Positions 4,335-29,649 of a stretch of 64,000 bases of DNA are shown piece after piece; the first letter of the stretch is position 1; each line of letters starts with the position of its first letter. Position numbers and translations under genes: made by a program. The notes under the pieces are model-generated. The model was not told the origin of the DNA. It ran no database searches and saw only the letters and a list, made by a program, of their open reading frames with translations. The DNA lies in the NCBI GenBank assembly GCA_034520965.1, contig JAXHMY010000005.1, forward strand, positions 1-64,000, read 5' to 3'. The DNA is from Spirochaetia bacterium. GTDB taxonomy: Bacteria > Spirochaetota > Spirochaetia > DSM-16054 > Sediminispirochaetaceae.

Positions 4335-4354
4335 AGGTCGTCAGATATTAGGTA

Positions 4355-5080: not shown

Positions 5081-5168
5081 GATGCTCTCCTATAATAAAT
5101 TATAATAATTGGTAATTACCAAGTCAATAAATACCTGCGAGTATAGGTCAGCTCATATCAGGACGCTA

Positions 5169-5211
5169 TGTGCGCCGGCGCACAGACGACTGGCCCTGCC
5201 TATGGTATCTT
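5169..5211 (+). promoter_or_regulatory. Crp-type box TGTGCGCCGGCGCACA-GAC with extended -10 TGgTATCTT
   Basis: Perfect 16-bp palindrome 5169-5184; -10 at 5206-5211; divergent from the crp gene. Confidence 0.75.
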
Positions 5212-5240
5212 TACATTATCTTGATTCAAGGAGGAGTAAT

Positions 5241-5303
5241 ATGGGTATTATAGGTGTATTAGTTGTAGTTATTCTGGTAGTTGTACTTGTCTCGATTCTT
5301 TAA
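5241..5303 (+). CDS. 20-aa hydrophobic micro-protein, copy 1 (MGIIGVLVVVILVVVLVSIL)
   Basis: AAGGAGGAG RBS; length and frame conserved in three copies; many differences synonymous. Confidence 0.7.
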   Translation: MGIIGVLVVVILVVVLVSIL

Positions 5304-5456
5304 TAGCAGCATGTGGGCCCAGGTTTGAGGACAATTTATGTGTCTTCGACTATTACGATGAATACACTGGAAGCTGACGCACAACACAAATATGCTATCG
5401 CGTATATGGATTTAACTTATTTCTTGATAGATATTAATCCCAAATACAGGACGCTA

Positions 5457-5499
5457 TGTGCACTGGCGCATAGACGACATGCCCTGCATATGGTACCTT
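5457..5499 (+). promoter_or_regulatory. Crp-type box TGTGCACTGGCGCATA-GAC with extended -10 TGgTACCTT
   Basis: Same spacing (21 nt) as the other copies. Confidence 0.7.
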
Positions 5500-5528
5500 T
5501 AAATTATCTTGATTCAAGGAGTAGTGAT

Positions 5529-5591
5529 ATGGATATTATAGGTGTATTAGTTGTAGTCATTCTGGTAGTTGTACTTGTTTCAATTATTTGA
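5529..5591 (+). CDS. 20-aa hydrophobic micro-protein, copy 2 (MDIIGVLVVVILVVVLVSII)
   Basis: AAGGAG RBS; TGA stop at the position of the TAA in the other copies. Confidence 0.65.
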   Translation: MDIIGVLVVVILVVVLVSII

Positions 5592-5754
5592 TAACAGCAT
5601 TCGGTAGATTACATAATTTCTTGATCTGATGGCCGACAGTGAAAAACATGGAACCCGGGGGGGGCATGATAAGCCCCCATACGTCCGGGTCCTTATACAC
5701 TTCAAATTTACTCGCCATATTAAACTCCTTTGTTGGCTGCTGTGCATTGACTGA

Positions 5755-6258
5755 TCACTTAATAATCTTTGCAACTCGCAGCACGAAGCCGACGACTGCC
5801 GCAAGGTATCCTGCCCCCATTGAATAGCCTCCTGCCTGAATTGTAACTTGTATACCGAAGGTTGTTGTTATGAAGTGGAGAAACTTCGAATTGCTCAGCG
5901 AGAGGAATTTGAGGGCCACTACTATGGACAACAATAAGCTGACCGCCAGCAAAGCGCAGCCAACGAAATAGCCGAAATCTCTCTTGCTGACATACGTGGC
6001 CACAATGCTCAGTAGGGCACACAGAAACACGCCAAGCAGTGCATATCCGTACAGGTCTGCGATAGGTCCCAGAAGCGTGGCCTTCCCCAACTGCTGCGTA
6101 TTTCCAAGGATGCCTTGCGCAACCTGATATCCACCCAAATCGTATGTGATCGGAAGAAAAAGTCCTAGAAAAACAAGGAGACCAGCAGTTTTCAGAATGG
6201 TTGTAGTAGCCGACAGCTTCATTGTGTCTCTCATAGACTTCACTCGGTACTTAATCAT
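5755..6258 (-). CDS. Hypothetical multi-pass membrane protein
   Basis: AGGAG RBS; about 4 hydrophobic segments; co-oriented downstream of the DUF3494 gene. Confidence 0.65.
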   Translation of the reverse strand: MIKYRVKSMRDTMKLSATTTILKTAGLLVFLGLFLPITYDLGGYQVAQGILGNTQQLGKATLLGPIADLYGYALLGVFLCALLSIVATYVSKRDFGYFVGCALLAVSLLLSIVVALKFLSLSNSKFLHFITTTFGIQVTIQAGGYSMGAGYLAAVVGFVLRVAKIIK

Positions 6259-6389
6259 CTTCTATTCTCCTAATTATTTGTATTGACTATTATTTTCAAT
6301 CGGGACTATCAAATCGCCGCTGTGGGAACCTGGGGAGGGCGTTGTCCGCCCTCCATCAAATCCGGGTTTCCTCGATTCTTTGACTTTTG

Positions 6390-7184
6390 TTACGGCTGGG
6401 TAACCGCGTTCGCGTCCAACGTAACCGCTTTCTGTGAGTGCAGCCGTCCGTTCACCGAGGCCCCAGTTTTGAGCGCAATTTCGGTTGCGGTCATGAGCGT
6501 TCCCGCGAACACCGAAGTAGTACTGAGTGTCGCGTTCGATCCGACCTGCCACACGATGTTCTCAGCCAGCGCGCCGCCGGCAAGAGTTACCTGGACGCCG
6601 TTTGCCACGGTGAGGTCGTTTGCTATCTGGAATACCCAGGTTGCGGTCTCCGAACCCCAGAGCGTGACGTCGCTGTTGATAGTGACACCGGTTCCCCACT
6701 TGTAGAGCCCCGGCTCGATGGTCAAACCGCTGATATCCCCGGAGCCGAGCTCGGTGGCATCCGGATCCGGCAGGTCGGCAGCGGTCGTGTACGCCGTCTC
6801 CATGTCGCCGACCGCCGCCGTCAGTTCGGTGGGAGTAGGCTCTTCGTAGTCAAAAGCGTAGAGTCTGCCGTTTACATTATCCGATGTCGAGAACTCGTTG
6901 GTTGAGTCCATTGTCAGCGAAAAGCCTGTTAAGGACGTATCAACCGTTCCGATGTTGCCCGTGATCGCCGTTGTTATTGCGGTGTTCGTGATCCCGGCCT
7001 TCGTTAAGGATCACGTAGTTGCCGGCGGACCCAAGGCTTACCGCAGCGGGCCCTCCGTTGGGACTGGGCACCGAGCAGCGCCCGTCCCCGCGCCAGTAGA
7101 ATTGCACCTCGCAAGAGCCAGGATACCAACGATGGCAACCATCAACACAAGTAGTCGCCTCTTTTTAAAATTAGTACTCATCAT
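6390..7184 (-). CDS. DUF3494 ice-binding-like (lipo)protein (two compensating frameshifts near 7005 and 7070)
   Basis: Signal MMSTNFKKRRLLVLMVAIVGILALARC; stitched frames give PAAVSLGSAGNYVIL-TKAGIT..ITGNIG, then AVGDMETAY, PGLYKW, WVFQI, NIVWQV, GRL..Q.AVTLD. Confidence 0.88.
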
Positions 7185-7297
7185 AAATCTCCTTTCCTCT
7201 CCCAGGATTTTGCGTGAAACATTTCTGTATGCTCCACATTATCAAAACGTTGAAACCTTATAGGCTTCTTTGGTTATTTTTAACCTTCTTATTATTG

Positions 7298-7340
7298 AAA
7301 GTATGCTTTCTTTTGCGGATAGACTGTTCGTTGCCGCACA
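7298..7340 (-). promoter_or_regulatory. Crp-type box TGTGCGGCAACGAACA-GTC with -10 TACTTT
   Basis: Box 7325-7340; -10 at 7303-7298, 21-nt spacing; upstream of the 7184 start. Confidence 0.7.
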
Positions 7341-7380
7341 TAGACCAGCTATTTTTATGAAATTTCTGTCAGTCAATAGA

Positions 7381-7401
7381 GGGCGGCACTGAGAGCCGCC
7401 C
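7381..7401 (-). terminator. GC-rich hairpin after the Ig-DUF3494 gene
   Basis: GGGCGGC-7 nt-GCCGCCC. Confidence 0.55.
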
Positions 7402-7423
7402 GTAGCATCTGTAGAACTCCGTT

Positions 7424-8517
7424 CTATTGCGCGGGCTCGGTCACGGTGGCCTTATCAAGGGCAACTTGGGTCTGTGTCAGAGCGCGTCCGTTCATCGATG
7501 CCCCTGTATCAAAGGTGATATCCTTCATGCTCAGAATTACTCCTTCAAAGTGGGAGCCCGTCTCAAGTAGCACCCCGCCGCCGCCGGCGACCTGCCAGAA
7601 GATGTTCTTCGCCTGCGCGCCACCTGATAGGATCACACTCTTATCGGCCGCTACCGTCAGATCACCGCTCATCTGGAATATCCAGACGTCGTTCGCGCCA
7701 CCGGAGATAGTGACATCAGAGGATGCTGTTACCGAAGAGCCCCACTTGTGAAGACCTGGTTCCAGTGTCAGGGTACCAATCTCGCCGCCACCCTCGTCCG
7801 AAAAATTAGGGTTCTGTCTTCCTTTCGCATCGGTATACGCAGTTTCCATGTCAGAAATTGCGGTAGTCATCATAGTCGGTGTAGGAGGTGTCATGTCGGC
7901 CGCGTAGAGAACCCCTGTCACCTGGGTGATGTCGAGTAACCTGTTGCCTTTGTTTGAGAAAAGCCGGTCAGGTAGGTTTCAGCGGCCGGGCTTACACCGA
8001 TGTCGCCGGTGATTACCGAATCAGGGACTGTTGAGATTCCCGTCTTCGACAGAATCGCAAAGTTTCCCGCGGTGCCTAGCAGTACCGGGTCCGGGCCGAG
8101 GCCGGCTGCTGCGGTTGTAAAGGTCCAGACATAGTCCTCATCCATGTTGTTGCCGTTAATGTCGGTGACGGAGGTGTTTAATTTTGCCGTGTACTCGATC
8201 TCATTGACCAGAAGCTCTGTTGGTGCAAACTTGGCAGTCTCATTGGGCAGGTCATAGGTTACGTTTCCATTGACAGCCGTAGTACCATTCAGGACAGTAA
8301 AATTCGCCCCTACTATGGTTGCATGATCCATCGCCTCGCTGAATTTTGCGGAAATTGTACCAGTGGTGCTTACATCTGTGGCATCAGAATCCGGCATGGT
8401 AGAAATTACCGTCGGTGCCGTGAAGTCCCCTGCGGAACCGGAGGAATTACATCCCATAAAAGCAAATATAGTAAATAGTGCGATCAGGGATATTAGAATT
8501 GTTTTGGTCTTCATCAT
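7424..8517 (-). CDS. Lipoprotein with Ig-like (Big_5-type) domain and DUF3494 ice-binding-like domain (frameshift near 7920)
   Basis: Lipobox FMGC; APTVIST.P...FSEAMD...YVWTFTT Ig domain; LGTAGNFAILSKTGIS, AISDMETAY, WIFQ, NIFWQVAG, NGRALTQT. Confidence 0.92.
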
Positions 8518-8646
8518 ATACTCCTTTGTATAATTAGAATTGGATGATGAAGAATAGAGTGCGCTTGGTCCCGTATTTTTGGGTAAGTCTTTGCACCGTA
8601 AGCAGAACGCCTCCTTTCGTTCATAGATTCTCCACGATCTAATAAG

Positions 8647-8690
8647 AAGATACGCAGAAAGGATAATCGTCGTCTGTACGGTAGCGCGCT
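8647..8690 (-). promoter_or_regulatory. Crp-type box AGCGCGCTACCGTACA-GAC with -10 TATCTT
   Basis: Box 8675-8690; -10 at 8652-8647, 22-nt spacing. Confidence 0.6.
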
Positions 8691-8728
8691 TAGCGGTACG
8701 GTTTGATCTACATATATACTTGGGGCTA

Positions 8729-8771
8729 TGTGCGCCGGCGCACAGACGATAGACCCTGGGATAGGTATCTT
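8729..8771 (+). promoter_or_regulatory. Crp-type box TGTGCGCCGGCGCACA-GAC with -10 TATCTT
   Basis: Palindrome identical to 5169-5184; -10 at 8766-8771. Confidence 0.75.
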
Positions 8772-8800
8772 CTAATTATCTTGATTCAAGGAGGAGTGAT

Positions 8801-8863
8801 ATGGGTTTAGCTAGTGTATTAGTTGTAGTTATTCTAGTAGTTGTACTTGTCTCAATTCTTTAA
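8801..8863 (+). CDS. 20-aa hydrophobic micro-protein, copy 3 (MGLASVLVVVILVVVLVSIL)
   Basis: AAGGAGGAG RBS; same cassette as 5160-5303; below the ORF-track cutoff. Confidence 0.7.
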   Translation: MGLASVLVVVILVVVLVSIL

Positions 8864-9018
8864 TAACAGAGGGAACCAAGAGCAGAGTTTCACGGCTTTA
8901 TTAAGGAAAAATTACCTTGCCGGCACTGTTTTCCGTCGGAACTTGGAGGCGGGCAGTGCGAGGCAATAAATAAAGTGTAATCTGGAGAGGTAAATTTTTT
9001 GAATGGATGTGACTTTTA

Positions 9019-9061
9019 TGTGTGATAGCGAACAGACGGATAAAATTGGGTAGAGTATAAT
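9019..9061 (+). promoter_or_regulatory. Crp-type box TGTGTGATAGCGAACA-GAC with consensus -10 TATAAT
   Basis: Box 9019-9034; TATAAT at 9056-9061. Confidence 0.75.
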
Positions 9062-9067
9062 GGCATT

Positions 9068-9247
9068 ATGTCGGATACAAATGAGTGCAGGAAGAAAGAA
9101 AATGACACTGGAAAGAAATGGTATGCCGGGATGGATGCGTTAGAAGCTCTCTGGCGGACAAAGATAGCGGAGAGCCGGGTAGAATACCTTGAAACTTTTT
9201 TACAGGTGACCAAAAAACGATCAAAACCCGATTTTCCCCGTAATTAG
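9068..9247 (+). CDS. Candidate leaderless 59-aa hypothetical protein
   Basis: ATG 6 nt after TATAAT, no SD; open to TAG 9245-9247 (MSDTNECRKKEND...DFPRN). Confidence 0.35.
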   Translation: MSDTNECRKKENDTGKKWYAGMDALEALWRTKIAESRVEYLETFLQVTKKRSKPDFPRN

Positions 9248-9311
9248 TGCGTGTCATACATGCCGGAAATTAATCGTACCAGAGTCTTTTTATAGTTGAA
9301 GTGAAGAAAAC

Positions 9312-11573
9312 ATGAGAAAACACTCTATTGTGATGATACTCATCACACTTATTATCCCGATAGTTCTTTGTGGACCTCTCTGGGCGCAGGATCATTCTGG
9401 GACACCCCGCCCCTCGGTCGCCCTGGTTCTTGAAGGAGGTGGTGCGCTCGGCTTTGCACACATAGGAGTCATAAAGGTAATCGAAGAGCTGGGCATCCCC
9501 ATCGACCTGGTAGTAGGGACGAGTATGGGAGCCACTGTAGGCGGTTTTTATGCTTTAGGCTACGACTCCGCGCGGCTGGAAGAAATTTCTCTGAGTATCG
9601 ACTGGGACGATATTTTCTCGGAAAAGGTCACTTTTATCGATGAACGGTACCTGGATAGAATCGACCAATCCAGGTATTTTGCACGCATAGAATTTGATAG
9701 CCACGGATTCAAGGTTCCCAGCAGTCTGCTTACCGGCCGGAAGATGCTCTACTATCTTGACCGATTGACCCTGGGAGTCTCCTCTCCCACCGATTTCGAT
9801 TCGTTACCGCGACGATTCCGCGCTGTTGCGACGGATCTTGCTACGGGTGAACGGGTCGTTATCGATCATGGATCGCTATCCGACGCTATGCGGGCCAGCA
9901 TGGGCATCCCCGGTATTCTTGCTCCTTACCGTATAGGCGACAAATATCTCGTTGATGGAGCTATCGTCGATAATCTTCCTGTCAGTGTCGCAAGAGAACT
10001 CGGTGCCGACCTCATCATTGCGGTCAACCTTGTTAGAAAACTTCCTTTTGAACCGGAATCCCTGAATCGAAATCCTCTGGAAACAATGTCCCGTTCCATA
10101 GATATCATGATTCGTTCCAATGTACAGCGTCAATTGCTTGATGCCGATCTTGCTGTCAAGGTTGATGTAAGAGCTTATGATATCGGTGATTATCAAAAAG
10201 CATTGGAAATTATCGCGTTAGGCAAAAAGGCGGCGGAGGAATTGCACGAAGAATTTGATAACCTCAAAACAAAACTCGGCGAACCTCCGGACTACACCGC
10301 TGATATACACCGGAAAGACCAGACTCCGATCCTGAAGGTGAATATAAAAGGGGCCGACAAAAAAGATCGTGATAGAGCCCATGCATTATTTGCACCCTTT
10401 GTGGGAAAAATACTTGTTGCCTCGGATCTGAAAGAAGCAGTGGAAGTTCTTGAAGCCAGGGGAAGCTATGAATACATACGTCTACGACGGACAACAGAAG
10501 AATCTGTTCCCACGTTAACGGTAACACTGCAGAAACGGAAAGCCCCTGGTCATTCAATTCGTCTGGGAATTGATTATAATTCCACCTACTCAAGCTCAAA
10601 CCTTAGTAACGCAGGTATTTCATTTAGTCTGGTATTCCGCAGTCTAATAACAGAAAATTCTAGATTAACCATCAACGCAAAAATAATGGATTCTACGGCC
10701 TTTGAGCTTATTATGTTGCAGCCCTTTGGAGTAAACCTTTTTGCCGAAGGGTTTTTCATGGCGCGTCAAGAAACTGATGCTTTTTATAATAATTCCTCCA
10801 CTATTTCTCTCCAGCAGACAGAGATCATTGAGATGGGTATCAACCTGGGAGCCAACCCGGTCCACTGGGCGGAGCTCGCAGCGGGCGTCCGTTACCAGTT
10901 GGCACAGGCTTCTATGGAACCTATTGTACCCGCAGGAGATGCTAGGGAATCAGTCTTTATCGGGAATATTTTCTTTTCGTCCTATCAACTGGATTCGCCT
11001 ATATTTCCCACCGCAGGGTTTTCAATCTTGTCCAGTTATGATCAATCATTGACTCAGTCCGGTTCCTCCTCTATTTTTCGCATCCTGAATCTCGAAGGCC
11101 TTTTCATTCCGGACTTCAACATTCCACTCTCCTTCACGCTGTGGACTAAGGCGGGAACCGATTTCAGCGAATATGCCGATGCAGCAGGAGCGGCGCCGCT
11201 CTACCACAAGCCAAATCTCTATGATCGACAATTTTTTCCTGGGCCCCTTGGAGTAAGGGAGCGTATCGGAAGTCACATCGCGAGCGTTGGGGCTGAGATA
11301 AAGTATCAGCTGAAAGGAGCTTCATGGGCGACCGGGTTCCCTTTCTTTTTATTGTTGCAGGCATCGCAGGGAACCGTACTGCAGGATGTAAAAGACATCG
11401 AGCGGCCATTCGACTTCACTCATTGGACTGGGACTGTTGGGTTAGGCGGTCGCCTCAACGATGGGTTTGGGGCATTATTCCGTGTCGGAGGTACCTACGG
11501 GTTTGATGAAGAGCTCCACCTTTTTATCGCCTTTGATATGGGCTCTCTGGGTAATCGAAAAAACTCTCGCTAG
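9312..11573 (+). CDS. Secreted patatin-like phospholipase with probable C-terminal beta-barrel (PlpD-like)
   Basis: Signal peptide; LEGGGALGFAHIG, GTSMG, DGAI motifs; C-terminal alternating beta-strand pattern. Confidence 0.88.
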   Translation: MRKHSIVMILITLIIPIVLCGPLWAQDHSGTPRPSVALVLEGGGALGFAHIGVIKVIEELGIPIDLVVGTSMGATVGGFYALGYDSARLEEISLSIDWDDIFSEKVTFIDERYLDRIDQSRYFARIEFDSHGFKVPSSLLTGRKMLYYLDRLTLGVSSPTDFDSLPRRFRAVATDLATGERVVIDHGSLSDAMRASMGIPGILAPYRIGDKYLVDGAIVDNLPVSVARELGADLIIAVNLVRKLPFEPESLNRNPLETMSRSIDIMIRSNVQRQLLDADLAVKVDVRAYDIGDYQKALEIIALGKKAAEELHEEFDNLKTKLGEPPDYTADIHRKDQTPILKVNIKGADKKDRDRAHALFAPFVGKILVASDLKEAVEVLEARGSYEYIRLRRTTEESVPTLTVTLQKRKAPGHSIRLGIDYNSTYSSSNLSNAGISFSLVFRSLITENSRLTINAKIMDSTAFELIMLQPFGVNLFAEGFFMARQETDAFYNNSSTISLQQTEIIEMGINLGANPVHWAELAAGVRYQLAQASMEPIVPAGDARESVFIGNIFFSSYQLDSPIFPTAGFSILSSYDQSLTQSGSSSIFRILNLEGLFIPDFNIPLSFTLWTKAGTDFSEYADAAGAAPLYHKPNLYDRQFFPGPLGVRERIGSHIASVGAEIKYQLKGASWATGFPFFLLLQASQGTVLQDVKDIERPFDFTHWTGTVGLGGRLNDGFGALFRVGGTYGFDEELHLFIAFDMGSLGNRKNSR

Positions 11574-18465: not shown

Positions 18466-19850
18466 ATGAAACCCAAAACACCGAATTCAAATCCTCCTGG
18501 CACGACGAACACCTCAAATGGATCTGTGGATTTGCAAACGCTGACGGCGGAATGATCTATATTGGTAAAGATGACAATGGGAAAGTAGTCGGATTGTCGA
18601 ATTATGCCAAACTGATGGAAGATCTTCCCAACAAAATTCGTAATGCCATGGGCATCATTTGCGATGTTCAGCTCAACGAAACAGACAACAAGAAATTTAT
18701 TTCCATCAAAGTTAATCCCTATTCCGTACCGGTTTCTCTACGGGGCAGGTTTTACTACCGTTCCGGCAGCACCAAAATGGAACTTACCGGTGTAGAACTC
18801 AATGAGTTTCTCATTAAAAAAGCGGGTAAAACCTGGGATGATATGATTGAAGATGACGCAACTGTGAAAGACATCAACGAAAAAAGTATTGCCTAATTCA
18901 TTGAAGACAGTGGAGATAAAGGACGATTGCCGGAAACGGAAGGGCTCAACACCTTTCAGATTCTGGAAAAATTGAAACTAACTGAAGGCAAAAAACTCAA
19001 ACGGGCTTCGATTATCCTGTTCGGCAAAGATCCCATGCGGTTTTACCCAAATATACAGGTAAAAATCGGGCGTTTCGGCATAGACGCGGCAGACCTGAGA
19101 TTTCAGGAAATTGTAGAGGGTAATCTTGTGCAGATGCTCCATGAAGTTCAGGTACAGCTCAATTACAAGTTTTTGACACGCCCGATAACATTCGAAGTCT
19201 TTCAACGCTTGGAAAACGATCTTTATCCGATTGACGCACTCAGAGAGATGCTTTTGAATGCACTTGTTCATCGCACCTATATGGGGGCGACCATTCAAAT
19301 GCGAGTGTACGACGACCAGCTTTCCATTTGGAATGAAGGCGCTCTTCCCTACGGCTTGAGTCTGGAAGATCTCAAAAAAGAGCATAGCTCACGTCCTCGA
19401 AACCCGCTAATAGCTAATGCCTGTTTTTTAGGGGGGTATATTGATACCTGGGGGCGCGGAACACTGAAAATAATCAATGCATGCCGGGAAGCAGGTTTAC
19501 CGGAGCCGGAATTCACAGAAAAGAACGGCGGTGTTTCTATGACAGTGTGTGCTCACAGTCTTGCAAGTATGGCCAGTCAAAATATTAGGGAGAAAACGTC
19601 GGAGAAAACGAAAGTAGAATTCGGAAAGAATTCGGAAAGAATTCGGAAAGAATTCGGAAGCGAAGTTGGCAGAGCTTTTGAAATTATATACCAGAGCCCC
19701 GAATTCACCGCAGAACAAATTGCAGAAAAGCTCGGAAAAACACAGCGGACCGTTGAAAATTACATCGCGAGATTGAAAAAGGCTGGGGTTATCACCAGGC
19801 GAGGTCCCAAGCTGGGCGGCTATTGGGAGGTAAACACAACAGAAAAATGA
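18466..19850 (+). pseudogene. AlbA_2 (Schlafen-like) + HATPase_c_4 + HTH protein with damaged start and in-frame TAA at 18894-18896
   Basis: ETQNTEFKSSWHDEHLKWICGFANADGG; ALREMLLNALVHRTY; SRPRNPLIAN; WGRG; C-terminal HTH ending GGYWEV; ORFs 18552 and 18927 share a frame. Confidence 0.85.
19617..19660 (+). repeat. 11-bp tandem repeat GAATTCGGAAA x4 within the CDS linker
   Basis: Units at 19617, 19628, 19639 and 19650 (last ends in G). Confidence 0.9.
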
Positions 19851-19961: not shown

Positions 19962-20471
19962 ATGGACAATAAACGCTTAGAAGATTACATGCGCAAAAAG
20001 AGACATGTGTGCTGGATTTTGAACGCTTTGGATGAAGAGTATACGGTCGAGACGACCCTAGGGGTGTACTGCCTTAACCCGACTTCTTTTTTTGATAGAG
20101 TACCGGAGAATGTACTGGAGGTGCTGAGGGGGAAGGGCTATACGAGGTTGTATGTGCTTTATCTTTTCTCCCGTATAGGTAATTTAAAAGAGTTTGCAGA
20201 TCTGCCGGTCGAGGAACTACTGGACGCAAAATGCAATGAGTCTTTAGGCGAGCTTATGCCGGAAGTAGGAAAGATCTTTTTTGCATATGGAACACTGCCG
20301 AACGAAAACATGCGTTTCCTGGTCGAGGGGCGGGTAGAGGAGGTAAAAAGCCTCATTCTGCAGCAAAAACCGGAGGTGGAGTTTTATCATTTCGGAGGCC
20401 TCACTGAAACGGGAGACCCTAAAAGCCTGGAAGCCCTTGAAGAGGGCGACAGCGAGAATAGAATTACTTGA
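19962..20471 (+). CDS. Hypothetical protein, weakly DUF1643-like
   Basis: CLNPT / YLFSR / FAYG / GLTETGDP resemble DUF1643 blocks; leaderless-type promoter TAGACT-17-TATACT. Confidence 0.55.
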   Translation: MDNKRLEDYMRKKRHVCWILNALDEEYTVETTLGVYCLNPTSFFDRVPENVLEVLRGKGYTRLYVLYLFSRIGNLKEFADLPVEELLDAKCNESLGELMPEVGKIFFAYGTLPNENMRFLVEGRVEEVKSLILQQKPEVEFYHFGGLTETGDPKSLEALEEGDSENRIT

Positions 20472-20593
20472 GAGAATACGAATGAGGACCTGGGGGACAC
20501 AATTCTCTGATGCCTGTTGATCCAGTAGTCTTCTTTGTTTCCTGGATGTCTTTTGAACTACCGATTGGTGCTTGTGTTCTGCTTAATTGGGCA

Positions 20594-21901
20594 TCAATCG
20601 ATATTATCCAACCGCTCTATTCTAGCTCCAAGAGCCTTCATGGTTTCATCGAAATTCGGGTAGGACACTGCTGCATATTCAGCATTTTCTATTATAGATG
20701 GACCTTCTGCAGTAAGAGCGGCAATGGTAGTGGCCATTACAATACGGTGATCGTGATGACCGTCAATGAACGCCCCTTTTAGATCAGATTGATAAATTAT
20801 CAATCTGTCCTCAGTTTCTTCAAATTTACCACCCATCTTCTCCAGCTCTTTTCGTATAATAGCGGTTCTGTCAGTTTCCTTAAGCCTACTGGCCGACACG
20901 TTTTTGAGTATCGTTTTTCCTTTGGCTCTGCATCCGAGAACGGCTAAGATAGGAACCGCATCCGGTGTACCGGAACAGTCGATTTCAATTCCATTTAAGG
21001 TATCGGTTCCTTCAACAGTTATGCCTTCTTCCCCACTACCGCGAATAGCAACCCGTGCGCCCATTCGCTCGAGTATTTTTACAAAAGCTTTTTCACCGGC
21101 GTAATCTTGGGTATTCAGATTATAGAAAGTAACTTTTGAATCTGTAATGGCAGTTGCTATCATTGGGTAGCCGGATGTCCCCCAGTCAGCTGGTATAGTA
21201 AAATCGGTTGCCTGCATCTTTTGTCTACCCTTTACTCGGAATTCCAGATAATCCTCAGAATGCTCTACTAAAACTCCAGTATGTTTAAGCATTCCAATGG
21301 TCATGTTTATGTAAGGTATTTCAAGCATCTTATCATCAGTAATGCGAATAACCGTATCACTCTCTGCTTGTGAAGCCGCCACAAGAATTGGTGTGAGCCA
21401 TTGGGAGTTTACACCCGGCATTTCAGCTTCACCACCTCTAAGAACCCCTTTCACCACAAGGGGAGCAAGACCAGAATTTCGAGTGGAATAAATATTTGCT
21501 CCCAATGCATTCAATGCCTTTATTTGCGGGCCGGTTGGCCTATAACAGATTTGGTAATCCCCGCTGATTACTGAACAGCCGTCAATAAGGCTTGCTACGG
21601 CCACTGCCATGTAGAACCCTGTGCCGGAGTTCTCTGCATCTAGAACCTGAGCAGGAACCTGCAGAGCACCACCGGAACCTTCTATAACCCACAGCTTTGG
21701 ATTGGATGTATCAATCTTAACACCTAATGCCCGCATCATATTGATAAGAGAAAAGCTGTCAAGATTAAGCAGAGGATTGTGCACTTTTGTTGTTCCTGTC
21801 GCTAATGAACCAAGTATAATGGAACGGGCGGTGCCTGATTTGTTTCCCGGAATTTGCACCTCTCCCTCCAAAGATTCTGTCTTATTCACTAAAAATTTCA
21901 T
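20594..21901 (-). CDS. aroA: EPSP synthase family enolpyruvyl transferase (AroA paralogue)
   Basis: PGNKSGTAR, NSGT, RP, NSQ, TPDAVP, SRLKETDR, DHRIVM, VSYPNF. Confidence 0.88.
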   Translation of the reverse strand: MKFLVNKTESLEGEVQIPGNKSGTARSIILGSLATGTTKVHNPLLNLDSFSLINMMRALGVKIDTSNPKLWVIEGSGGALQVPAQVLDAENSGTGFYMAVAVASLIDGCSVISGDYQICYRPTGPQIKALNALGANIYSTRNSGLAPLVVKGVLRGGEAEMPGVNSQWLTPILVAASQAESDTVIRITDDKMLEIPYINMTIGMLKHTGVLVEHSEDYLEFRVKGRQKMQATDFTIPADWGTSGYPMIATAITDSKVTFYNLNTQDYAGEKAFVKILERMGARVAIRGSGEEGITVEGTDTLNGIEIDCSGTPDAVPILAVLGCRAKGKTILKNVSASRLKETDRTAIIRKELEKMGGKFEETEDRLIIYQSDLKGAFIDGHHDHRIVMATTIAALTAEGPSIIENAEYAAVSYPNFDETMKALGARIERLDNID

Positions 21902-21926
21902 TTAAAAGACCTCACTATTATGTTTA

Positions 21927-21977
21927 AAGATAACGTTTTCAGTTAATTAGAATAGTATTTTATTTGATTTCTGTCAA
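21927..21977 (-). promoter_or_regulatory. aroA promoter TTGACA-17-TATTCT with downstream LacI-type operator
   Basis: -35 at 21977-21972; -10 at 21954-21949; AGATAACGTTTTCAG at 21928-21942. Confidence 0.7.
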
Positions 21978-22036
21978 TATTAATTTGAATCTTGCTAATT
22001 TTTGAAATTATTTCAAGAAAATCAGTTTAAAACTGT

Positions 22037-22088
22037 TTGACAAGGTATATTTTTAGTTGCTATTATAAAACACAGATAACGTTTGCAG
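22037..22088 (+). promoter_or_regulatory. TRAP operon promoter TTGACA-18-TATTAT with downstream LacI-type operator
   Basis: -35 at 22037-22042; TGc-TATTAT at 22058-22066; AGATAACGTTTGCAG at 22074-22088. Confidence 0.7.
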
Positions 22089-22124
22089 AAGTTTATTTGT
22101 TACTATTTTATTGGAGGTATCGTA

Positions 22125-23105
22125 ATGAAGAAGAAAATTGTTTTAATTCTGATTTTAAGTATGCTGGTTGCAGGGTTTAGTTGGGCGGGTGGTGCTCAGG
22201 AGGATTCCAAGATCATTTCCATTGCTACAGCTGGTACGGCCGGGGCATTATACCCGATGGGGGTAGCATTGGCTGAGGTGTTAAATAACAATATTGAAGA
22301 TATGACAGCTTCCGCCGAATCTAGTGGGGCATCACTTGAAAATATGAGAAACCTTATGCAGGGCAATGTTGAATGGGGTATAAGCCAGAACGAAGTTGCC
22401 TTTCAGGCATACGATGGTATCGGCCCCTACGAAGGAAAAGAATTTAAAGAACTTCGTTCACTTTTCGGCACACTGATAAGCTGGATTCAGGTTTTTGTTC
22501 CTGCTGACAGTGATATTGATGAAATATCGGACATGGAAGGAAAAAGAATTGGGGTTGGGCAAGCCGGCAGCGGAGGCGAAGCGGCTGCAAAGAAGGTTCT
22601 TTCTTATTACGGTCTTGATTACGATTCTATCACTCCGGAATTTATTTCGGATTCCGAGATGGTAAATGCACTAAAAGATGGTGTTTTGGACGGTTTTATC
22701 AGCACACATCCGCTTAAATCGGCTGCTCTCCTGGACCTTACTACTACTTTTAAAGTGAAGATTATTTCGGTTAATGATGAAGGGTTTTACAATGAATATC
22801 CTTATTATACCCGAATGACCATTCCTGCAGGTACATACAGAGGAGTAGATTATCCTGTTGATACTCCAACCTCGAGAATTGTTATGTATACTACCAAAAA
22901 TCTTCCAGAGGACATAGTGTATGAGTCCATGAAGGCAGTTTGGGAAAATGAAGAAGACTGGGTAAAGGTTCATGCAGCCGTGGAAAAATACACAAATTTG
23001 GAGGATGCATGTACAAACCTGTCGGCTCCGTTGCATAAAGGAGCAGCCAAATACTATGAAGAAATGAGAGTCTCCATACCTTCAGAGTATGCGCCGATCG
23101 ACTAA
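22125..23105 (+). CDS. TAXI-family TRAP solute-binding protein
   Basis: GGAGG RBS; SIATAGTAGALYPMG, SGASLEN, GQAGSGG, PLHKGAAKYY. Confidence 0.92.
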   Translation: MKKKIVLILILSMLVAGFSWAGGAQEDSKIISIATAGTAGALYPMGVALAEVLNNNIEDMTASAESSGASLENMRNLMQGNVEWGISQNEVAFQAYDGIGPYEGKEFKELRSLFGTLISWIQVFVPADSDIDEISDMEGKRIGVGQAGSGGEAAAKKVLSYYGLDYDSITPEFISDSEMVNALKDGVLDGFISTHPLKSAALLDLTTTFKVKIISVNDEGFYNEYPYYTRMTIPAGTYRGVDYPVDTPTSRIVMYTTKNLPEDIVYESMKAVWENEEDWVKVHAAVEKYTNLEDACTNLSAPLHKGAAKYYEEMRVSIPSEYAPID

Positions 23106-23595
23106 ATATTTCAGAACAGGGTTGTGGCTTACTGCTGCCGCCCTGTTCCTGTGTTTTCTGCTGATATTGGGAAGGAGTTTTTTTATCCCTTCCTTTACTA
23201 TCTACAATGAAACAAACGGTGAAGTTGTAGCACGTGTTCCTTTAGAAGAGATTCTTGAGATTCGCTATGTATACAGACAGTCCTATGATCGCGGACTAAT
23301 TGAAGAATATTTTGTAATAGAAAATAAGCGCCTAATACCAATTGTTATGACCTATGACACCGATTCCTATGATTATCATGGGAGCCGATATGAAAACTCT
23401 GATCGACGATTGGCCGGAAACAGATGGCATATAAGGATTTATAAACACCTGGGCTATGCAATGATTTCATACAGAATTGGTTATACTATTGAACAGCATA
23501 TGCGCTTACTCACCATCAAAGGAGAGCAGAGCTTTTCTTTCAAACAAATGGGTGAACCCGGGGACCTAATAATTGTTGGTGCAGGAAAGAGGTAA
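23089..23595 (+). CDS. DUF1850-like TAXI-TRAP accessory protein
   Basis: N-terminal TM; IRYVYRQSYDRGLIEEYF; usual position between the SBP and the permease. Confidence 0.65.
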   Translation: MRRSTKYFRTGLWLTAAALFLCFLLILGRSFFIPSFTIYNETNGEVVARVPLEEILEIRYVYRQSYDRGLIEEYFVIENKRLIPIVMTYDTDSYDYHGSRYENSDRRLAGNRWHIRIYKHLGYAMISYRIGYTIEQHMRLLTIKGEQSFSFKQMGEPGDLIIVGAGKR

Positions 23596-23597
23596 GA

Positions 23598-25492
23598 ATG
23601 ATACAAAAAAACACTGTTGGTATGGTGGCAATAGCAGTACTTGGCTTTGCATTTTCCATTTTTCACATTTATACTGCCCTTTTTGGTGTTCTAACACCAA
23701 TATTGCAAGGGGGAATACACCTGTTCACGCTGCTGGCCCTTGGGCTTCTGATATATAGAGTTAAAAAAACTAATGACCAGAAAGAACCTGCCTTTCGTTG
23801 GCATAATGTTTTTCTTTTTTTTGTAGTTGTTATTGTAGCACTTTTTTTTCTTACTCAGCTTAGTCCGGATGAAATACTAAACCGCGGGATTATGGGTCCA
23901 ACCAGAATAGAGCAAGTACTCGGTCTCATAATTCTGTTGCTTGTATTAGAGGGAACTAGGCGCACAATTGGGCTTCCGATTGTAATGGTGGCAGTGTTTT
24001 TTATCATTTACGCCCTATTTGGACGGTACATGCCTTCGGTAATAGCTCACAAGGGGTATTCCATTTGGAGACTTATTGACAATCTTGTCTGGACTACCCA
24101 GGGAATATTCGGAGTACCTATAGCTGTATCTTCCACCTTTGTTATAATTTTTATTCTCTTTGGAAGTATGCTGGATAAACTCGGTGCTGGAGCATTTTTT
24201 ATTAATTTTGCCTATGCACTTACGGGTCATAGAAAAGGCGGGCCTGCTCAGACCTCTGTTATTGCCAGTGGCTTCATGGGGAGCATTTCGGGGTCCTCAG
24301 TTAGCAATGTGGTAACCACCGGTGCTTTCACCATACCGCTTATGAAAAAAACCGGTTATTCATCAGAATATGCTGGTGCCGTGGAAGCGGTAGCCTCTAC
24401 GGGTGGGCAAATTATGCCGCCCGTCATGGGAGCCGCCGCATTTGTTATGGCCGATATGTTGGGGGTTCCCTATTACAGAATAGCCCTGTCTGCTGCAATT
24501 CCTGCATTACTGTATTTTATTTCCGTAGGCTTTATGGTATATTTCCGGGCTTGCCGTAAGGGCCTTGAAGGAGTAGACAAAAAAGAACTTCCTTCCGCCG
24601 GTAAAGTTCTGAAAGAAGGGTATTACGTAGTAATTCCTCTCATTGCCCTTATCTATTTTCTTTTTATCCGAATGTATTCACCCATGCGGGCCGGAGTTTT
24701 TACAATCTTTGTACTGGTAGCTGTCAGTTTCATCTGGACATTTTTCAGAGAAAAGCGTTTTTTATTTAAGAACTTTTTGATGCTCTTGTTCACGGGGCAA
24801 AAATAGCAATTCCGGTAGCTATGGCCTGTGCTTCTGCGGGAATTGTTATAGGTATCGTCAGCCTTACAGGACTGGGGGTAAGGTTTACCCAATTGATTAT
24901 TAGTCTTTCAGGCGGTTATCTTTTTCCGGCTCTTTTGCTGACAATGGTGGCGTGCATTATCCTTGGAATGGGCCTTCCAACCACAGCAGCTTACATCATC
25001 ACTTCGGTGTTGGCTGTTCCGGCACTCACTTCACTTGGAATTCCTGTCATGGCCGCCCATTTGTTCATACTCTATTTCGCAATTATTTCTTTTATAACCC
25101 CTCCTGTGGCAATTTCAGCCTTTGCCGCCTCGGGAATAGCCGGCTCAGATAGTATGAAAACTGGATTCACTGCCTTTCGGATAGGTATAGCTGGTTTTAT
25201 TGTTCCCTTTATGTTCGTATACGGACCCTCTTTGATTTTTATAGGGGCATGGTGGCTTATCCTCATGAATACCGCTAAAGCCTTACTTGGTGTAGTACTG
25301 CTGGCAGGATCTCTGGAAGGCTGGTTTTTCAACAGACGCCTTAAACCAGTCTACCGCATTTTTATTGGGCTTGCCGCAGTGTTTCTCATATTCCCACGAT
25401 TGTGGTCTGGTTTGGTTGGATTAGCGTTTATGTTGATATCTTTTTTACTAATTGTTATTCTGGAAAAGACTGTTATGTATAAGAGTGTATAG
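23598..25492 (+). CDS. TRAP fused 4TM/12TM permease (frameshift near 24760)
   Basis: GGPAQ, SGSSVSNVVTTG, EAVASTGGQIMPPVMGAAAF, LGMGLPTTAAY, ITPPVA. Confidence 0.92.
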
Positions 25493-26563
25493 ATGGAAAA
25501 TAAGGGCTTACCCACCCTAAATGACGTTGCCTCGAGTGCAGGGGTCTCAATCTCTACAGTTTCGCGATATCTAAACGGAATAAAAATCCGGAACGATTTG
25601 GCACAAAAGGTGGAAGTGGCAGTCGCTCATCTCGATTATAAGCCAAACTATGCCGCTCGTGCGATTCGAGGCAGTAAAAGCAGGGCTATAGGAATGATTC
25701 TTCCAAAAATAGAACACCCCTATTTTTCTGCTGTCCTTGAAGGGGCAACGGAAGAGGCACGCAGGCATGATCAAACAATATTGGTTTCTTCTAGCCAGGG
25801 GAAACGGGCCATCGAGAATGACATTATCCATCAATTTTCTCGTAGTATAATCGATGGCTTAATTTACACCCCGGTAGCTACGGATGACGATTTTATAGAA
25901 ACAGAATCTTTTAGAAACCTGCCCGTTATTATAGCTGCCCGAGGACCTAAAGTATATCCTGAATTCATTCATGTGTTTCAAAATACCCGATCCGGAGGCT
26001 ACCTTTCTACTAGTTATCTCCTATCTCTTGGGCACCGGCGAATTGCTTTTTTTGCCAGTTTTTGGGAGCCATTCTGTAACTCCACTACCATCAAATCAAG
26101 TCTTGATCTTCCAGGTGCAGAGGTTTATTCCAGTCTTGACCGTTTTCGCGGCTATCTGGATGCCCTGGAAGGGGCAGAAATCGAATACGACCCAAACTTA
26201 GTAGTTATCTGTGGCTATGGCTTTGATTCAGGCAATGATGCAGTAAAGGAACTGCTTTCCCGTTGTGTACGCTTCGATGCAATTGTTACTGCTTCTGATG
26301 CGGTAGCAGGAGGGGCAATGCATACATTAGACCTGCAGGGTATAGAAATTCCCTCAGATATATCCGTTGTCGGTTATGGTGATTTGGAGATCGGAACAAT
26401 AATGAAACCCTCATTGACAACAATACAGCAGGATATGTTCTTCCTGGGGGAAGAATCAGTAAGGGCATTAAATAAGCTAATTGAAGAAAAGCCGGTTGCA
26501 AACAAGATGCTCGATGTAAAACTGATTGTCAGGAATTCAACAAAAAAGAAACAGATTAAATAA
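25493..26563 (+). CDS. LacI-family transcriptional regulator
   Basis: TLNDVASSAGVSISTVSRYLN, YKPNYAARAI, IPSDISVVGYGD, PSLTTI. Confidence 0.95.
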   Translation: MENKGLPTLNDVASSAGVSISTVSRYLNGIKIRNDLAQKVEVAVAHLDYKPNYAARAIRGSKSRAIGMILPKIEHPYFSAVLEGATEEARRHDQTILVSSSQGKRAIENDIIHQFSRSIIDGLIYTPVATDDDFIETESFRNLPVIIAARGPKVYPEFIHVFQNTRSGGYLSTSYLLSLGHRRIAFFASFWEPFCNSTTIKSSLDLPGAEVYSSLDRFRGYLDALEGAEIEYDPNLVVICGYGFDSGNDAVKELLSRCVRFDAIVTASDAVAGGAMHTLDLQGIEIPSDISVVGYGDLEIGTIMKPSLTTIQQDMFFLGEESVRALNKLIEEKPVANKMLDVKLIVRNSTKKKQIK

Positions 26564-26690
26564 ACTCTGTATTATGAATAAAACATTTCTCCTTTTATAT
26601 TAGACAATCGAAATACTAATTGTTTTCACATCAGATAAAGGTTTGATAAAAAAAACAAGAAAATTATATACTCAACATAAGGCATATATA

Positions 26691-26938
26691 TTGGATGAAG
26701 AGTATACGGTCGAGACGACCCTAGGGTGTACTGCCTTAACCCGCCTTCTTTTTTTGATAGAGTACCGGAGGGTGAAAACATGCGTTTCCTGGTCGAGGGG
26801 CGGGTAGAGGAGGTAAAAAGCCTCATTCTGCAGGAAAAACCGGAGGCGGAGTTTTATCATTTCGGCGGCCTCACTGAAACGGGAGACCCTAAAAGCCTGG
26901 AAGCCCTTGAAGAGGGCGACAGCGAGAATAGAATTACT
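26691..26938 (+). pseudogene. Internally deleted duplicate of the 19962-20471 gene
   Basis: 26691-26770 matches 20028-20108; 26774-26938 matches 20304-20468. Confidence 0.9.
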
Positions 26939-27202: not shown

Positions 27203-27505
27203 ATGGAACAGCAACTTATCGAACTATCCACCCCTGGGGAAGTTCTGAAAGAAGAGTTTCTCGAACCTATGGGTATTACTCCTTATGCCCTTGCGAAAGG
27301 GATTTTTGTAGATCCTCCCAGAATAGCCGCAATTATAAAAGGAAAACGTAAGATCACCGCTGACACAGCTGTCAGACTGTCCAGGTACTTTGGGACAACG
27401 CCAGAGTTCTGGATGAACATGCAGAGTCGTTATGATCTGGAAGTTCTGATGGAAGAGAAAGAAACAGAGCTGAACAAGATTACCCAGCATCATAAGGCTT
27501 CGTGA
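27203..27505 (+). CDS. higA: HigA-family antitoxin (no higB seen upstream)
   Basis: PGEVLKEEFLEPMGIT...ITADTAVRLSRYFGTTPEFWMNMQSRYDL; AGGAGG RBS. Confidence 0.92.
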   Translation: MEQQLIELSTPGEVLKEEFLEPMGITPYALAKGIFVDPPRIAAIIKGKRKITADTAVRLSRYFGTTPEFWMNMQSRYDLEVLMEEKETELNKITQHHKAS

Positions 27506-28263: not shown

Positions 28264-29649
28264 CTATTCCAATTCCAGTGCCACACGAACAGTGGTTCCT
28301 GCTTCTGTGCGTATGCTCATAGTGCCGTCAAACTGTACCGTATACCCTTCGACCAGGGTGAGCCCAAAACCGTATTTTCCTTGTTCTACTATTTCGGGGG
28401 GCATGCCGTTTCCGTTATCAGAGACTTCGATGCACAGTAGGTTAGTTTTCTCTTGGTCTTTGTGAATTGATAAGTGTATTTCTCCCCGGTCGTTTTCCGG
28501 AAAGGCGTATTTGATGGAGTTGGTTATAAGCTCTGTTATTATTATACCCACAGGTAGAGACTGTTTTGAGGTAATCTCTATCTCTTCTATATCCGTGGTT
28601 ATGGATATGGACCGGCTGTAGATATAGGCAGCCCGAATATCACGAATAAGCGGGCTTAAAAATGAGGAGATATATACATTACCTATATCCACACCGATGT
28701 AGAGGGATTGATAGATGTTTTGCATCAGTCTCATTTTTGTCTGCACATCTTCAAGGACCCCCTTGATGTGTAAATCATCAATACCATTCGCGCGCAGTGA
28801 AATTATGCTTGAGATTGTGTTCATGTGGTTTTTAATACGGTGATGCACTTCATGCAGCAGATGCTCTTTTTCTTCTAATAGCGTCTCTACCTCCTTTTCT
28901 TTCTGCTTACTCCGGCTAATATCGGTATAGGTAGCCACGACGCCCTCAAACTCTCCGTCAATAATGAGAGGGGATCCGGAGACAATGAGGTGTAATGGGC
29001 TGCCTTCTTTTGTGTATCTGATAGTTTCGATGGGTTCTACGGGCACACCTGAGTGGGCTCTGCTGCTAAACGACAGGGCTTCGTTGTAAATATTTTTATC
29101 ATGAAAGGCTATGCACTCATCAATTGTTTTCCCTAAAACCTCTTCTTCCTTGTAGTGGAACAGCTCCACAGCCTTGTGGTTCCATCCGGTTACACAGCTG
29201 TTCGCGTCGAGCGTTGCTATGGCGTTCGGACTGATATCGATAATAGCTTCTGCATATTTTTTACGCTTCTTGTTAATCCGTTCTAAGTTTTTTCGTTCGG
29301 TAATATCCTCTGCAAAGCTGATAATACCGTTCTCATCAATCTTCATCATTGAAATTGAAAGAGTTTTAGCTGAGCCATCCTTGGTTAGAATTTCTGTTTC
29401 CTCTTTGTAGAATCCTTTAGACAGTAAGGTATGTATAGCCTGTTTTGTTCTTTCCTCCGCAGCTTGAGGCAGTAAAGCGGCAACATTCATGTTCAGCAGT
29501 TCTTGCTCGCTGTAACCGGTACACTGTGAGGTAGCGCGATTTACCTCCTTTATTTTGCCCTTTGTATCTGTGAGCATAAAACTGATGGGTGCATAGGAAA
29601 TGAAATCTAAAAAATCTTCCCACTGCTTACTGATTTGGTCTTTATTCAT
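28264..29649 (-). CDS. PAS-PAS-HisKA_2 sensor histidine kinase
   Basis: Two PAS/PAC repeats; EVHHRIKNH, ELITNSIKYAF, SDNGNG, GFGL. Confidence 0.92.
   Translation of the reverse strand: MNKDQISKQWEDFLDFISYAPISFMLTDTKGKIKEVNRATSQCTGYSEQELLNMNVAALLPQAAEERTKQAIHTLLSKGFYKEETEILTKDGSAKTLSISMMKIDENGIISFAEDITERKNLERINKKRKKYAEAIIDISPNAIATLDANSCVTGWNHKAVELFHYKEEEVLGKTIDECIAFHDKNIYNEALSFSSRAHSGVPVEPIETIRYTKEGSPLHLIVSGSPLIIDGEFEGVVATYTDISRSKQKEKEVETLLEEKEHLLHEVHHRIKNHMNTISSIISLRANGIDDLHIKGVLEDVQTKMRLMQNIYQSLYIGVDIGNVYISSFLSPLIRDIRAAYIYSRSISITTDIEEIEITSKQSLPVGIIITELITNSIKYAFPENDRGEIHLSIHKDQEKTNLLCIEVSDNGNGMPPEIVEQGKYGFGLTLVEGYTVQFDGTMSIRTEAGTTVRVALELE

Follow-up and report, generated by a model that had tools for sequence, protein, structure and literature searches.

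The aroA-like gene at positions 20594–21901 (minus strand) of contig JAXHMY010000005.1 of a Spirochaetia bacterium (Sediminispirochaetaceae, assembly GCA_034520965.1) encodes a paralogue of the 5-enolpyruvylshikimate 3-phosphate (EPSP) synthase AroA, which is predicted to share twin LacI operators with a divergently oriented TAXI-TRAP uptake operon. Positions 1–64,000 of this contig are referred to as the window; the locus under study covers positions 20594–26563. We consider it about an even chance (probability roughly 0.5) that this enzyme acts outside the housekeeping shikimate route and uses an imported organic acid, or a compound closely derived from it, as the acceptor for the enolpyruvyl group of phosphoenolpyruvate (PEP). 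There is good support for the regulatory wiring, for the paralogy, and for a conserved association with uptake, and the enzyme likely has a role other than the housekeeping one. In the proposed mechanism, the LacI protein encoded by the operon would occupy both operators until the imported acid, or what is made from it, released the protein, and importer, enzyme, and repressor would then rise together. The acceptor would likely be a hydroaromatic carboxylate related to shikimate or chorismate, and the enol-ether product would enter the existing chorismate/prephenate metabolism.

Predicted promoters and operators of the aroA-like gene and the TRAP operon

The aroA-like gene (435 amino acids) and the four genes of the TRAP operon on the plus strand are separated by 223 bases. 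Two promoter-like sites are located back to back in this intergenic region. The site of the aroA-like gene (21949–21977, minus strand) consists of TTGACA at 21977–21972, a spacer of 17 nucleotides, and TATTCT ending at 21949 (10 of 12 matches). The site of the TRAP operon (22037–22066, plus strand) comprises TTGACA at 22037–22042, a spacer of 18 nucleotides, and TATTAT ending at 22066, with TG in front of the −10 box (11 of 12 matches). As a class, promoter-like sites are not enriched in the region 20400–26800 (15 observed, 13.0 ± 3.0 in shuffled sequences). Each of the two is followed by a predicted 15-bp operator, O1 (AGATAACGTTTTCAG, 21928–21942) and O2 (AGATAACGTTTGCAG, 22074–22088), respectively. 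Both operators begin 6–8 bases past their −10 hexamer and thereby cover approximately +1 to +15 of the corresponding promoter. An earlier note on this DNA, made from the sequence alone, had described this arrangement, and its coordinates proved to be exact.

Both operator sequences are unique in the genome. Their 13-mer core ATAACGTTTKCAG occurs twice on both strands of the 3,346,500-base assembly (3.35 Mb), at O1 and at O2, and the two genome-wide matches to the looser pattern WGANAACGTTTNCA lie at the locus as well. Among 40 relatives, an orthologue of the aroA-like gene was found only in G019 (80%) and G022 (73%), which belong to other families of the class. In G019, all five genes recur with their order and orientation unchanged, and the contig of G022 ends within the divergent binding-protein gene. 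Two operator copies, each behind a promoter, are present in both genomes. The operators of G019 read GATAACGTTTGCAG and GAAAACGTTTGCAG; TTGACA is kept at the promoter of its aroA-like gene, and TTGACA ... TATAAT is found at the position of the TRAP promoter. In a sub-lineage comprising G022 and the orthologous loci L023 and L025, both sites read CTGTAAACATTTAC. Both sites are thus altered together in this sub-lineage, as would be expected with one cognate local repressor and not with a global regulator.

Most of the 22 LacI-linked loci of the clade described below display the same type of site. In 17 of them, the region ahead of the aroA-like gene contains a TGNAAACGTTNA-type site, which in 13 of these 17 lies 25–45 bases before the start codon. 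Two further loci have an AAACATT variant, so that a TGNAAAC(G/A)TTNA-type site is found in 19 of the 22 altogether; in the other three, a simple scan detected no operator-type site. In five other genomes, all eight exact genome-wide matches to TGNAAACGTTWATC are located at the clade locus. The sites are palindrome-like with a central CG, lie at the promoters that would be regulated, and are conserved in orthologous loci. The claim of the earlier note that they form a shared LacI-type operator is strengthened by their uniqueness, their conservation, and their covariation. Judged from these matches, the predicted LacI regulon is the operon itself, limited to one locus.

The arrangement might also be accidental, an ordinary aroA lying beside an unrelated TRAP operon and the two sites being global cre-like sites or chance repeats. 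The sites do conform to the pattern that LacI and cre sites generally share, including the CG in the centre. This explanation is nevertheless hardly credible, because another aroA is present in the genome, the motif is confined to the locus both here and, by all its exact matches, in five other genomes, both sites covary in one sub-lineage, and the linkage is found in 61 of 73 loci across phyla. An assignment to global cre/CcpA sites was rejected on account of the same confinement to the locus, here and in the five other genomes. DNA looping between the operators was considered, too, and is without support: the spacing is 146, 171, and 118 bp, and approximately 137 bp in L021, and the phase is not conserved.

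The first gene of the operon (22125–23105, plus strand) encodes a TAXI-family TRAP solute-binding protein of 326 amino acids. Its start is most likely the ATG at 22125, which follows a GGAGG sequence, and not the TTG at 22083. The protein matches TIGR02122 (272.3 bits, cut-off 84.35) and PF16868, and its best solved relatives are 1us4, 8u79, 9oz4, and 8s4j. A ligand was sought via solved relatives; the titles of the seven TAXI structures found (E-values 2.5e-48 to 2.2e-27) name none, and no inference was drawn. The second gene is a small conserved open reading frame (ORF; 23089–23595, plus strand, 168 amino acids) between the binding-protein and the permease genes. It has no match in Pfam or NCBIfam, even at E-values up to 1; homologues are found in the same position in 12 of 80 loci. 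The permease gene (23598–25492, plus strand) is followed by the gene of the LacI-family repressor (25493–26563, plus strand), which starts one base past the permease stop and closes the operon, as the earlier note had it. The repressor combines a LacI-type helix-turn-helix domain (PF00356, 47.5 bits, residues 8–52) with a sugar-binding-like effector domain (PF00532, 93.6 bits; PF13377, 81 bits). None of the NCBIfam equivalogs was reached, the top match being RbsR with 189 bits (cut-off 382). In protein clustering, the repressor groups with the LacI genes of 25 related loci. No RNA runs were among the public runs listed for positions 21500–25500 of the window.

The fused TRAP permease reads as two ORFs in the window (23598–24806 and 24821–25492), which cover positions 3–385 and 397–610 of the TIGR02123 profile. 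Its orthologue in G019 is a single ORF of 631 amino acids, and the comparison places the break near 24767–24771. Contigs bridging this position in three public runs (X1, X3, and X4; DNA compared, 24300–25300) all contain an additional A behind 24767. The pieces of run X1 show no other differences, and those of X3 and X4 derive from relatives that are approximately 95–96% alike. Because the A is present in all three bridging contigs, the break is regarded as an assembly indel and the importer as intact. A pseudogenised transporter was accordingly rejected. With the A restored, the operon encodes a TAXI binding protein together with an intact fused permease. Other apparent frameshifts in the assembly may be similar indel errors. 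Near-identical DNA of the compared region was found in two runs labelled salt pan metagenome (X1 and X2), and the 95–96% alike relatives stem from runs labelled microbial mat metagenome (X3 and X4).

Paralogy and clade membership of the window AroA

The genome contains three PF00275 genes, namely an aroA on contig 9, a murA on contig 1 (504.7 bits), and the copy in the window on contig 5. The window protein matches PF00275 over its full length (311.8 bits, profile positions 2–417 of 417) and scores 359.1 bits against the aroA equivalog TIGR01356 (cut-off 287.25), compared with 404.1 bits for the contig 9 protein; it is thus assigned to EPSP synthase (EC 2.5.1.19) by the family model. Against the murA model TIGR01072, it reaches 105 bits (cut-off 392.7) and is not a member. 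Its best solved relatives are all EPSP synthases (E-values 2e-54 to 1e-51). The window protein and the contig 9 AroA are identical in 160 of 424 positions (38%). The genes aroK and aroC are adjacent on contig 3, which also carries aroE; aroB is located on contig 2, and the prephenate dehydratase gene on contig 9. Family searches placed nothing else of these aro families on contig 5, in agreement with the earlier note, which had seen no other aro gene in the window and had proposed the gene to be a paralogue. The window gene therefore does not lie with aro genes, and another aroA on contig 9 is available for the shikimate pathway. A search of the assembly, which is rated 85.9% complete, detected no member of the chorismate-binding enzymes (PF00425: anthranilate, isochorismate, or aminodeoxychorismate synthase).

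None of nine genomes of the same genus has an orthologue of the window gene; their best matches are 37–44% identical or weakly murA-like, and G001 has no match. The G+C content of positions 18–30 kb of the window is 40–44%, compared with approximately 48% for the contigs. From its patchy distribution and low G+C content, the locus looks like an acquired accessory module or island. The same 18–30 kb region contains the gene of an HTH_3 protein, which may be an antitoxin (27203–27505), and that of a PAS/HisKA_2 histidine kinase (28264–29649). Upstream of the locus, two adjacent ORFs, 18552–18896 (114 amino acids) and 18927–19850 (307 amino acids), look like one regulator-type protein in two parts. 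Pfam assigns HATPase_c_4 and a winged-helix domain to the latter; the former as its N-terminal part is a guess from the translation, and the interruption would be an assembly indel or a real break.

For the phylogeny, a quick maximum-likelihood tree (LG+G4) was calculated with 75 clade sequences of at least 380 amino acids and 16 housekeeping copies, taken from the same genomes or from related ones; the Shimodaira–Hasegawa-like approximate likelihood ratio test (SH-aLRT) was the only support measure. Two aberrant long-branch sequences (L095 and L087_b) grouped with the housekeeping set and were dropped afterwards. The remaining 73 clade sequences were split from the 16 housekeeping copies with an SH-aLRT value of 99, and the window protein was located inside the clade. 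The phylogeny suggested by the earlier note hence places the window copy apart from the housekeeping enzymes.

Residues were numbered by alignment to E. coli AroA. We take the catalytic and PEP-site residues of the E. coli enzyme to be K22, R124, Q171, D313, E341, R344, H385, and R386. All of these are kept in the window protein. In the clade, R124, Q171, D313, K340, E341, R344, H385, and R386 are kept in 73 of 73 sequences, and K22, S23, and R27 in 71, with gaps in the other two. The catalytic K/D/E/R motifs recognised in the earlier note are thus invariant across the clade apart from gaps. The ligands of shikimate 3-phosphate in the E. coli enzyme are presumably S23, R27, S169, S170, S197, Y200, N336, and K340, with S169 and N336 assumed to contact the 3-phosphate of the substrate and R27 assumed to bind the shikimate carboxylate. 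Of these positions, S23, R27, S170, Y200, and K340 are kept, and position 197 is a glutamate in the clade as well as in 14 of the 16 housekeeping copies. The clade is characterised by N169 (72/73), W172 (73/73), W243 (73/73), G244 (63/73), and A336 (69/73), where the housekeeping copies have T/S, Y/F, F, S, and Q/S/H, respectively. Further differences from the housekeeping copies are N21, A26, G98, S246, G247, and Y248. The changes at positions 169 and 336, both presumed contacts of the 3-phosphate, are suggestive without being conclusive.

The motifs NSQW, EIPY, and PADWGTS, which the earlier note had listed, are present in the window translation. Its caution that they are not diagnostic alone holds for EIPY, which is not specific to the clade (the position in question reads R in 51/73 and I in 10/73); NSQW and DWG(S/T)SG turned out to be clade signatures.

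A second full-length aroA with all catalytic residues could also be a back-up EPSP synthase tolerating a natural PEP-competitive, glyphosate-like inhibitor. Such an enzyme would be induced by accumulating shikimate-type intermediates, and the importer would recapture excreted intermediate. The positions of E. coli R100 and P101 do differ in the clade (Y and M/F/L/I, respectively). However, the housekeeping copies are mostly the same there (Y at 100 in 10/16, L/F at 101 in 14/16), and the retention of the gene in genomes in which no shikimate pathway was found (see below) would be left unexplained. We regard this possibility as very improbable.

Association with uptake systems and occurrence in genomes in which no shikimate pathway was found

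A protein search listed 120 relatives of the window protein with 58–93% identity, and all named relatives among these matches are called 3-phosphoshikimate 1-carboxyvinyltransferase. In a scan of one genome per species, the best 80 of 366 stretches encoding a relative were kept as loci. They are spread over Spirochaetota, Deltaproteobacteria/Thermodesulfobacteriota, and Bacillota; going by the bin labels, Bacteroidota and Actinomycetota are represented by one bin each. ORFs were called by a custom script, and 978 ORFs were clustered. After filtering, seven of the 80 loci were left without a full-length aroA-like ORF and were excluded, so that the counts refer to 73 loci. A transporter component is encoded within 5 kb of the aroA-like gene in 61 of these, TAXI parts in 46. 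In 38 loci, the next gene downstream of the aroA-like gene has the same orientation and encodes a TAXI binding protein (gaps of −22 to 108 bp), and the divergent arrangement of the window was found in four. A LacI, IclR, or LysR gene is present in 49 of the 73 loci. Altogether, four uptake families (TAXI-TRAP, NMT1/SsuA-type ABC, TctCBA, and Liv-type ABC) and three regulator families are represented. Because the families filling these roles vary, an importer together with a local regulator appears to be the constant partner of the enzyme. The neighbourhood conservation that the earlier note had proposed as a check is hence borne out across phyla, transporter families, and regulator families.

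Twelve of the 73 loci have none of the four uptake systems. Among these, L026 ends in a binding-protein fragment, L073 encodes a CitMHS permease adjoining the aroA-like gene, and L074 a membrane protein with a Gate domain. In L073 (8339–11716), the CitMHS permease is accompanied by a GH1 glycosidase with an arylsulfotransferase, and in L074 (8321–10296), the Gate-domain protein by an alpha/beta hydrolase. L089 encodes a carboxylesterase (8636–9976). In L070 (4016–5932, Desulfarculaceae), genes for a BKACE protein and a short-chain dehydrogenase lie upstream of the IclR, aroA-like, and TAXI genes; the BKACE protein scores 406 bits against the model of 3,5-dioxohexanoate:acetyl-CoA acetone transferase, which is below the cut-off of 430. 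A DUF554 membrane protein is encoded in 10 loci. As leads, and not as evidence of one particular substrate, these context genes (esterase, hydrolase, glycosidase/arylsulfotransferase, BKACE, and DUF554) point to plant-derived hydroaromatic or phenolic acids. L073, L074, and L089 are Lachnospiraceae versions of the locus, in which the genes named above follow the aroA-like gene and its LysR regulator. In L016, the locus of G019 and the closest orthologous one, the aroA-like gene is flanked by genes for a thiamine-diphosphate/ferredoxin oxidoreductase, an ADP-forming acyl-CoA synthetase, and a thioesterase (3424–8650), an arrangement seen in this one genome only. By its Pfam domains, the oxidoreductase looks like indolepyruvate:ferredoxin oxidoreductase; if this is right, these would be genes of aromatic 2-oxo-acid metabolism.

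Judging by the record titles, the clade occurs in anaerobes that ferment, live syntrophically, or reduce sulfate. For such organisms, the enzyme could also operate in reverse as a phosphorylase, which would convert an imported enolpyruvyl ether or pyruvate ketal plus phosphate to PEP and an alcohol and thereby conserve energy. The EPSP synthase reaction is reversible, a module of one importer and one enzyme would suffice, and LacI-family regulators often sense sugars. However, the invariant R27, taken above as the carboxylate binder, suits a shikimate-like acid better than a sugar ketal, and the chorismate mutase adjacent to the gene in deltaproteobacterial loci (see below) would be left unexplained. 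The reverse reaction is therefore considered improbable.

To assess the aromatic pathway of the carriers, 63 clade-bearing genomes were searched, comprising an initial 13 and those of 50 of the remaining 68 loci. A match to chorismate synthase (aroC) was found in 49 and a second aroA-type gene in 50 of them. These numbers, together with the aroK and aroC genes of the genome studied here, are compatible with an inducible salvage isozyme of EPSP synthase, for which the TRAP system would import shikimate, quinate, or dehydroshikimate, and the housekeeping kinase, the extra AroA, induced along with the importer to carry the added flux, and the housekeeping chorismate synthase would jointly convert it to chorismate. 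The match to the EPSP synthase model, the kept catalytic and most ligand positions, and the loci in which the aroA-like gene adjoins an above-cut-off chorismate mutase gene speak for such an isozyme as well, as do G058 and G072, which have aroC and only a clade-type aroA. On the other hand, a shikimate importer would first need a kinase, and neither aroK- nor aroC-like ORFs were found among the 978 ORFs of the 80 loci by BLAST with the genome's own proteins as queries, a search of limited sensitivity. Two further arguments against it are the substitutions peculiar to the clade at E. coli positions S169 and N336, the presumed phosphate ligands, and the retention of the clade gene in nine genomes for which searches found neither aroC nor aroE nor a second aroA. 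The salvage isozyme is a possible explanation that we hold only tentatively, and an acceptor other than shikimate 3-phosphate is, at about even odds, the better of the two live options.

The nine genomes (G045, G049, G050, G051, G053, G074, G081, G091, and G097) contain a single aroA-type gene and no match to aroC or aroE. In five of them (G045, G049, G050, G051, and G053), searches for a chorismate-binding enzyme, prephenate dehydratase, dehydroquinate (DHQ) synthase, and TrpA found none, the matches to SKI were only P-loop stubs (22–25 bits), and PDH_N was not detected above the cut-off. A murA-like match was obtained in all five, which indicates that the bins are not empty shells. Among genomes with the aroA-like gene beside a chorismate mutase gene, six of nine are pathway-less in this sense, versus three of the 54 others.

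The deltaproteobacterial operon concerned comprises an NMT1-type ABC importer, the aroA-like gene, and a CM_2 chorismate mutase (L049, 97–8571; L066, 545–10708; and related loci). The chorismate mutase exceeds the TIGR01807 cut-off and is the sole CM_2 protein in four of the five genomes. The operon also contains a peptidase-U32-family gene (43.1 bits in L049; 22.0 bits in L066, cut-off 22.4). Further genes encode a B12-radical-SAM protein and a DUF362 protein in L049, and a UPF0261 protein, a UbiD-family decarboxylase, and a UbiE-like methyltransferase in L066. The U32 protein RlhA is reportedly involved in prephenate-dependent hydroxylation. According to PMC6599085, the same applies to the U32 protein TrhP, and CmoA uses prephenate. 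It would make sense for the deltaproteobacterial module to supply prephenate from an imported precursor. As no chorismate synthase was found in those Deltaproteobacteria, the product of the aroA-like enzyme itself would be required to be the substrate of the mutase.

A missing aroC match together with an adjacent chorismate mutase is the basis of a more far-reaching idea, namely a direct synthesis in which the clade enzyme would join PEP to an unphosphorylated cyclohexadiene-diol or hydroaromatic acid taken up from outside and yield chorismate or an enol ether resembling it. Shikimate kinase and chorismate synthase would thereby be bypassed. Such a bypass would account for the joint retention of importer, AroA-like enzyme, chorismate mutase, and U32-type protein in Deltaproteobacteria whose genomes yielded no further gene for aromatic biosynthesis, and for the occurrence of Trp, Asn, and Ala at or next to the positions presumed to hold the phosphate. 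We consider such a direct route unlikely.

Several points weigh against enolpyruvyl transfer to an imported acid outside the shikimate route, the reading preferred here. The window protein passes the NCBI aroA equivalog cut-off and keeps most of the presumed shikimate 3-phosphate ligand positions. Since aroC is present in this genome and in 49 of the 63, ordinary EPSP synthesis from imported shikimate is possible. The pathway-less genomes are metagenome bins whose completeness is not reported by the searches (G097 has only 1.5 Mb), and they are mutually related and not independent. In related Deltaproteobacteria, the genes absent from them form one cluster of approximately 11–14 kb (G052, C292:18846–33641; G043, C23:102864–113370), so that their absence would amount to one event per genome and not to several; TrpA is located on another contig in G043 and G078. 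In G061, G064, and G090, a second aroA is present although no aroC match was obtained, a pattern indicating that incompleteness does cause misses. Finally, in G058 and G072, where aroC is accompanied by a clade-type aroA only, the clade enzyme may act as EPSP synthase.

Comparison with known systems and implications

The window protein resembles housekeeping AroA (E. coli class I; TIGR01356; 1g6s, 7tm4, and 5xwb) in its full-length two-domain EPSP_synthase match and its invariant catalytic residues. It differs in being a second copy in a separate clade with the signature N169/W172/W243/G244/A336. Unlike housekeeping aroA, the clade gene lies beside importers and local regulators rather than aro genes, and it is retained in some genomes in which no aroE, aroK, or aroC was found. 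MurA, the UDP-N-acetylglucosamine enolpyruvyl transferase, has the same fold and the same PEP addition–elimination chemistry as AroA and is a precedent within the superfamily for acceptors besides shikimate 3-phosphate. The window protein itself is far below the murA cut-off, and a separate murA is located on contig 1. An AroA homologue may also belong to the Streptomyces gene sets that form cyclohexanecarboxyl-CoA from shikimate; no conclusion here draws on it.

The predicted repressor is similar to local repressors of the LacI/GalR family, which act on TGNAANCGNTTNCA-type operators, in its helix-turn-helix and periplasmic-binding-protein-like effector domains and in the location of its gene within the operon that it would regulate. 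The predicted operators likewise are imperfect palindromes with a central CG that overlap the predicted transcription start. In contrast to characterised LacI/GalR proteins, no equivalog was reached, the predicted regulon is a single locus, and there is one operator per divergent promoter with a spacing that is not conserved. The importer corresponds to known TAXI-TRAP systems (1us4/1us5, 8s4j, 9oz4, and 8u79) by its TIGR02122 binding protein and TIGR02123 fused permease, with the small extra ORF in between. No description of a TAXI or TRAP system coupled to an AroA-family enzyme was found in the open-access full text searched. The deltaproteobacterial loci, which pair chorismate mutase and a U32-family gene with the aroA-like gene, recall the context of the prephenate-dependent U32 hydroxylases (TrhP and RlhA) and CmoA; the window locus has no U32 gene, so this is a lead on what the clade may supply and not a likeness of the window genes. 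The parts, an AroA-family enzyme, a LacI repressor, and a TRAP importer, are known, and their combination and the apparent independence of the clade from the shikimate pathway appear to be undescribed in open-access full text.

Being the target of glyphosate, AroA is one of the most thoroughly studied enzymes of bacteria. Should the clade turn out to use an imported acid, the automatic annotation as EPSP synthase would be wrong for hundreds of genomes, and predictions of aromatic amino-acid prototrophy and glyphosate sensitivity from aroA counts would be misled. Little material is needed for a test, namely the enzyme, the binding protein, and the repressor together with its defined predicted operator. 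With it, a new enolpyruvyl-transfer reaction or a new salvage route to chorismate or prephenate in anaerobes would become testable.

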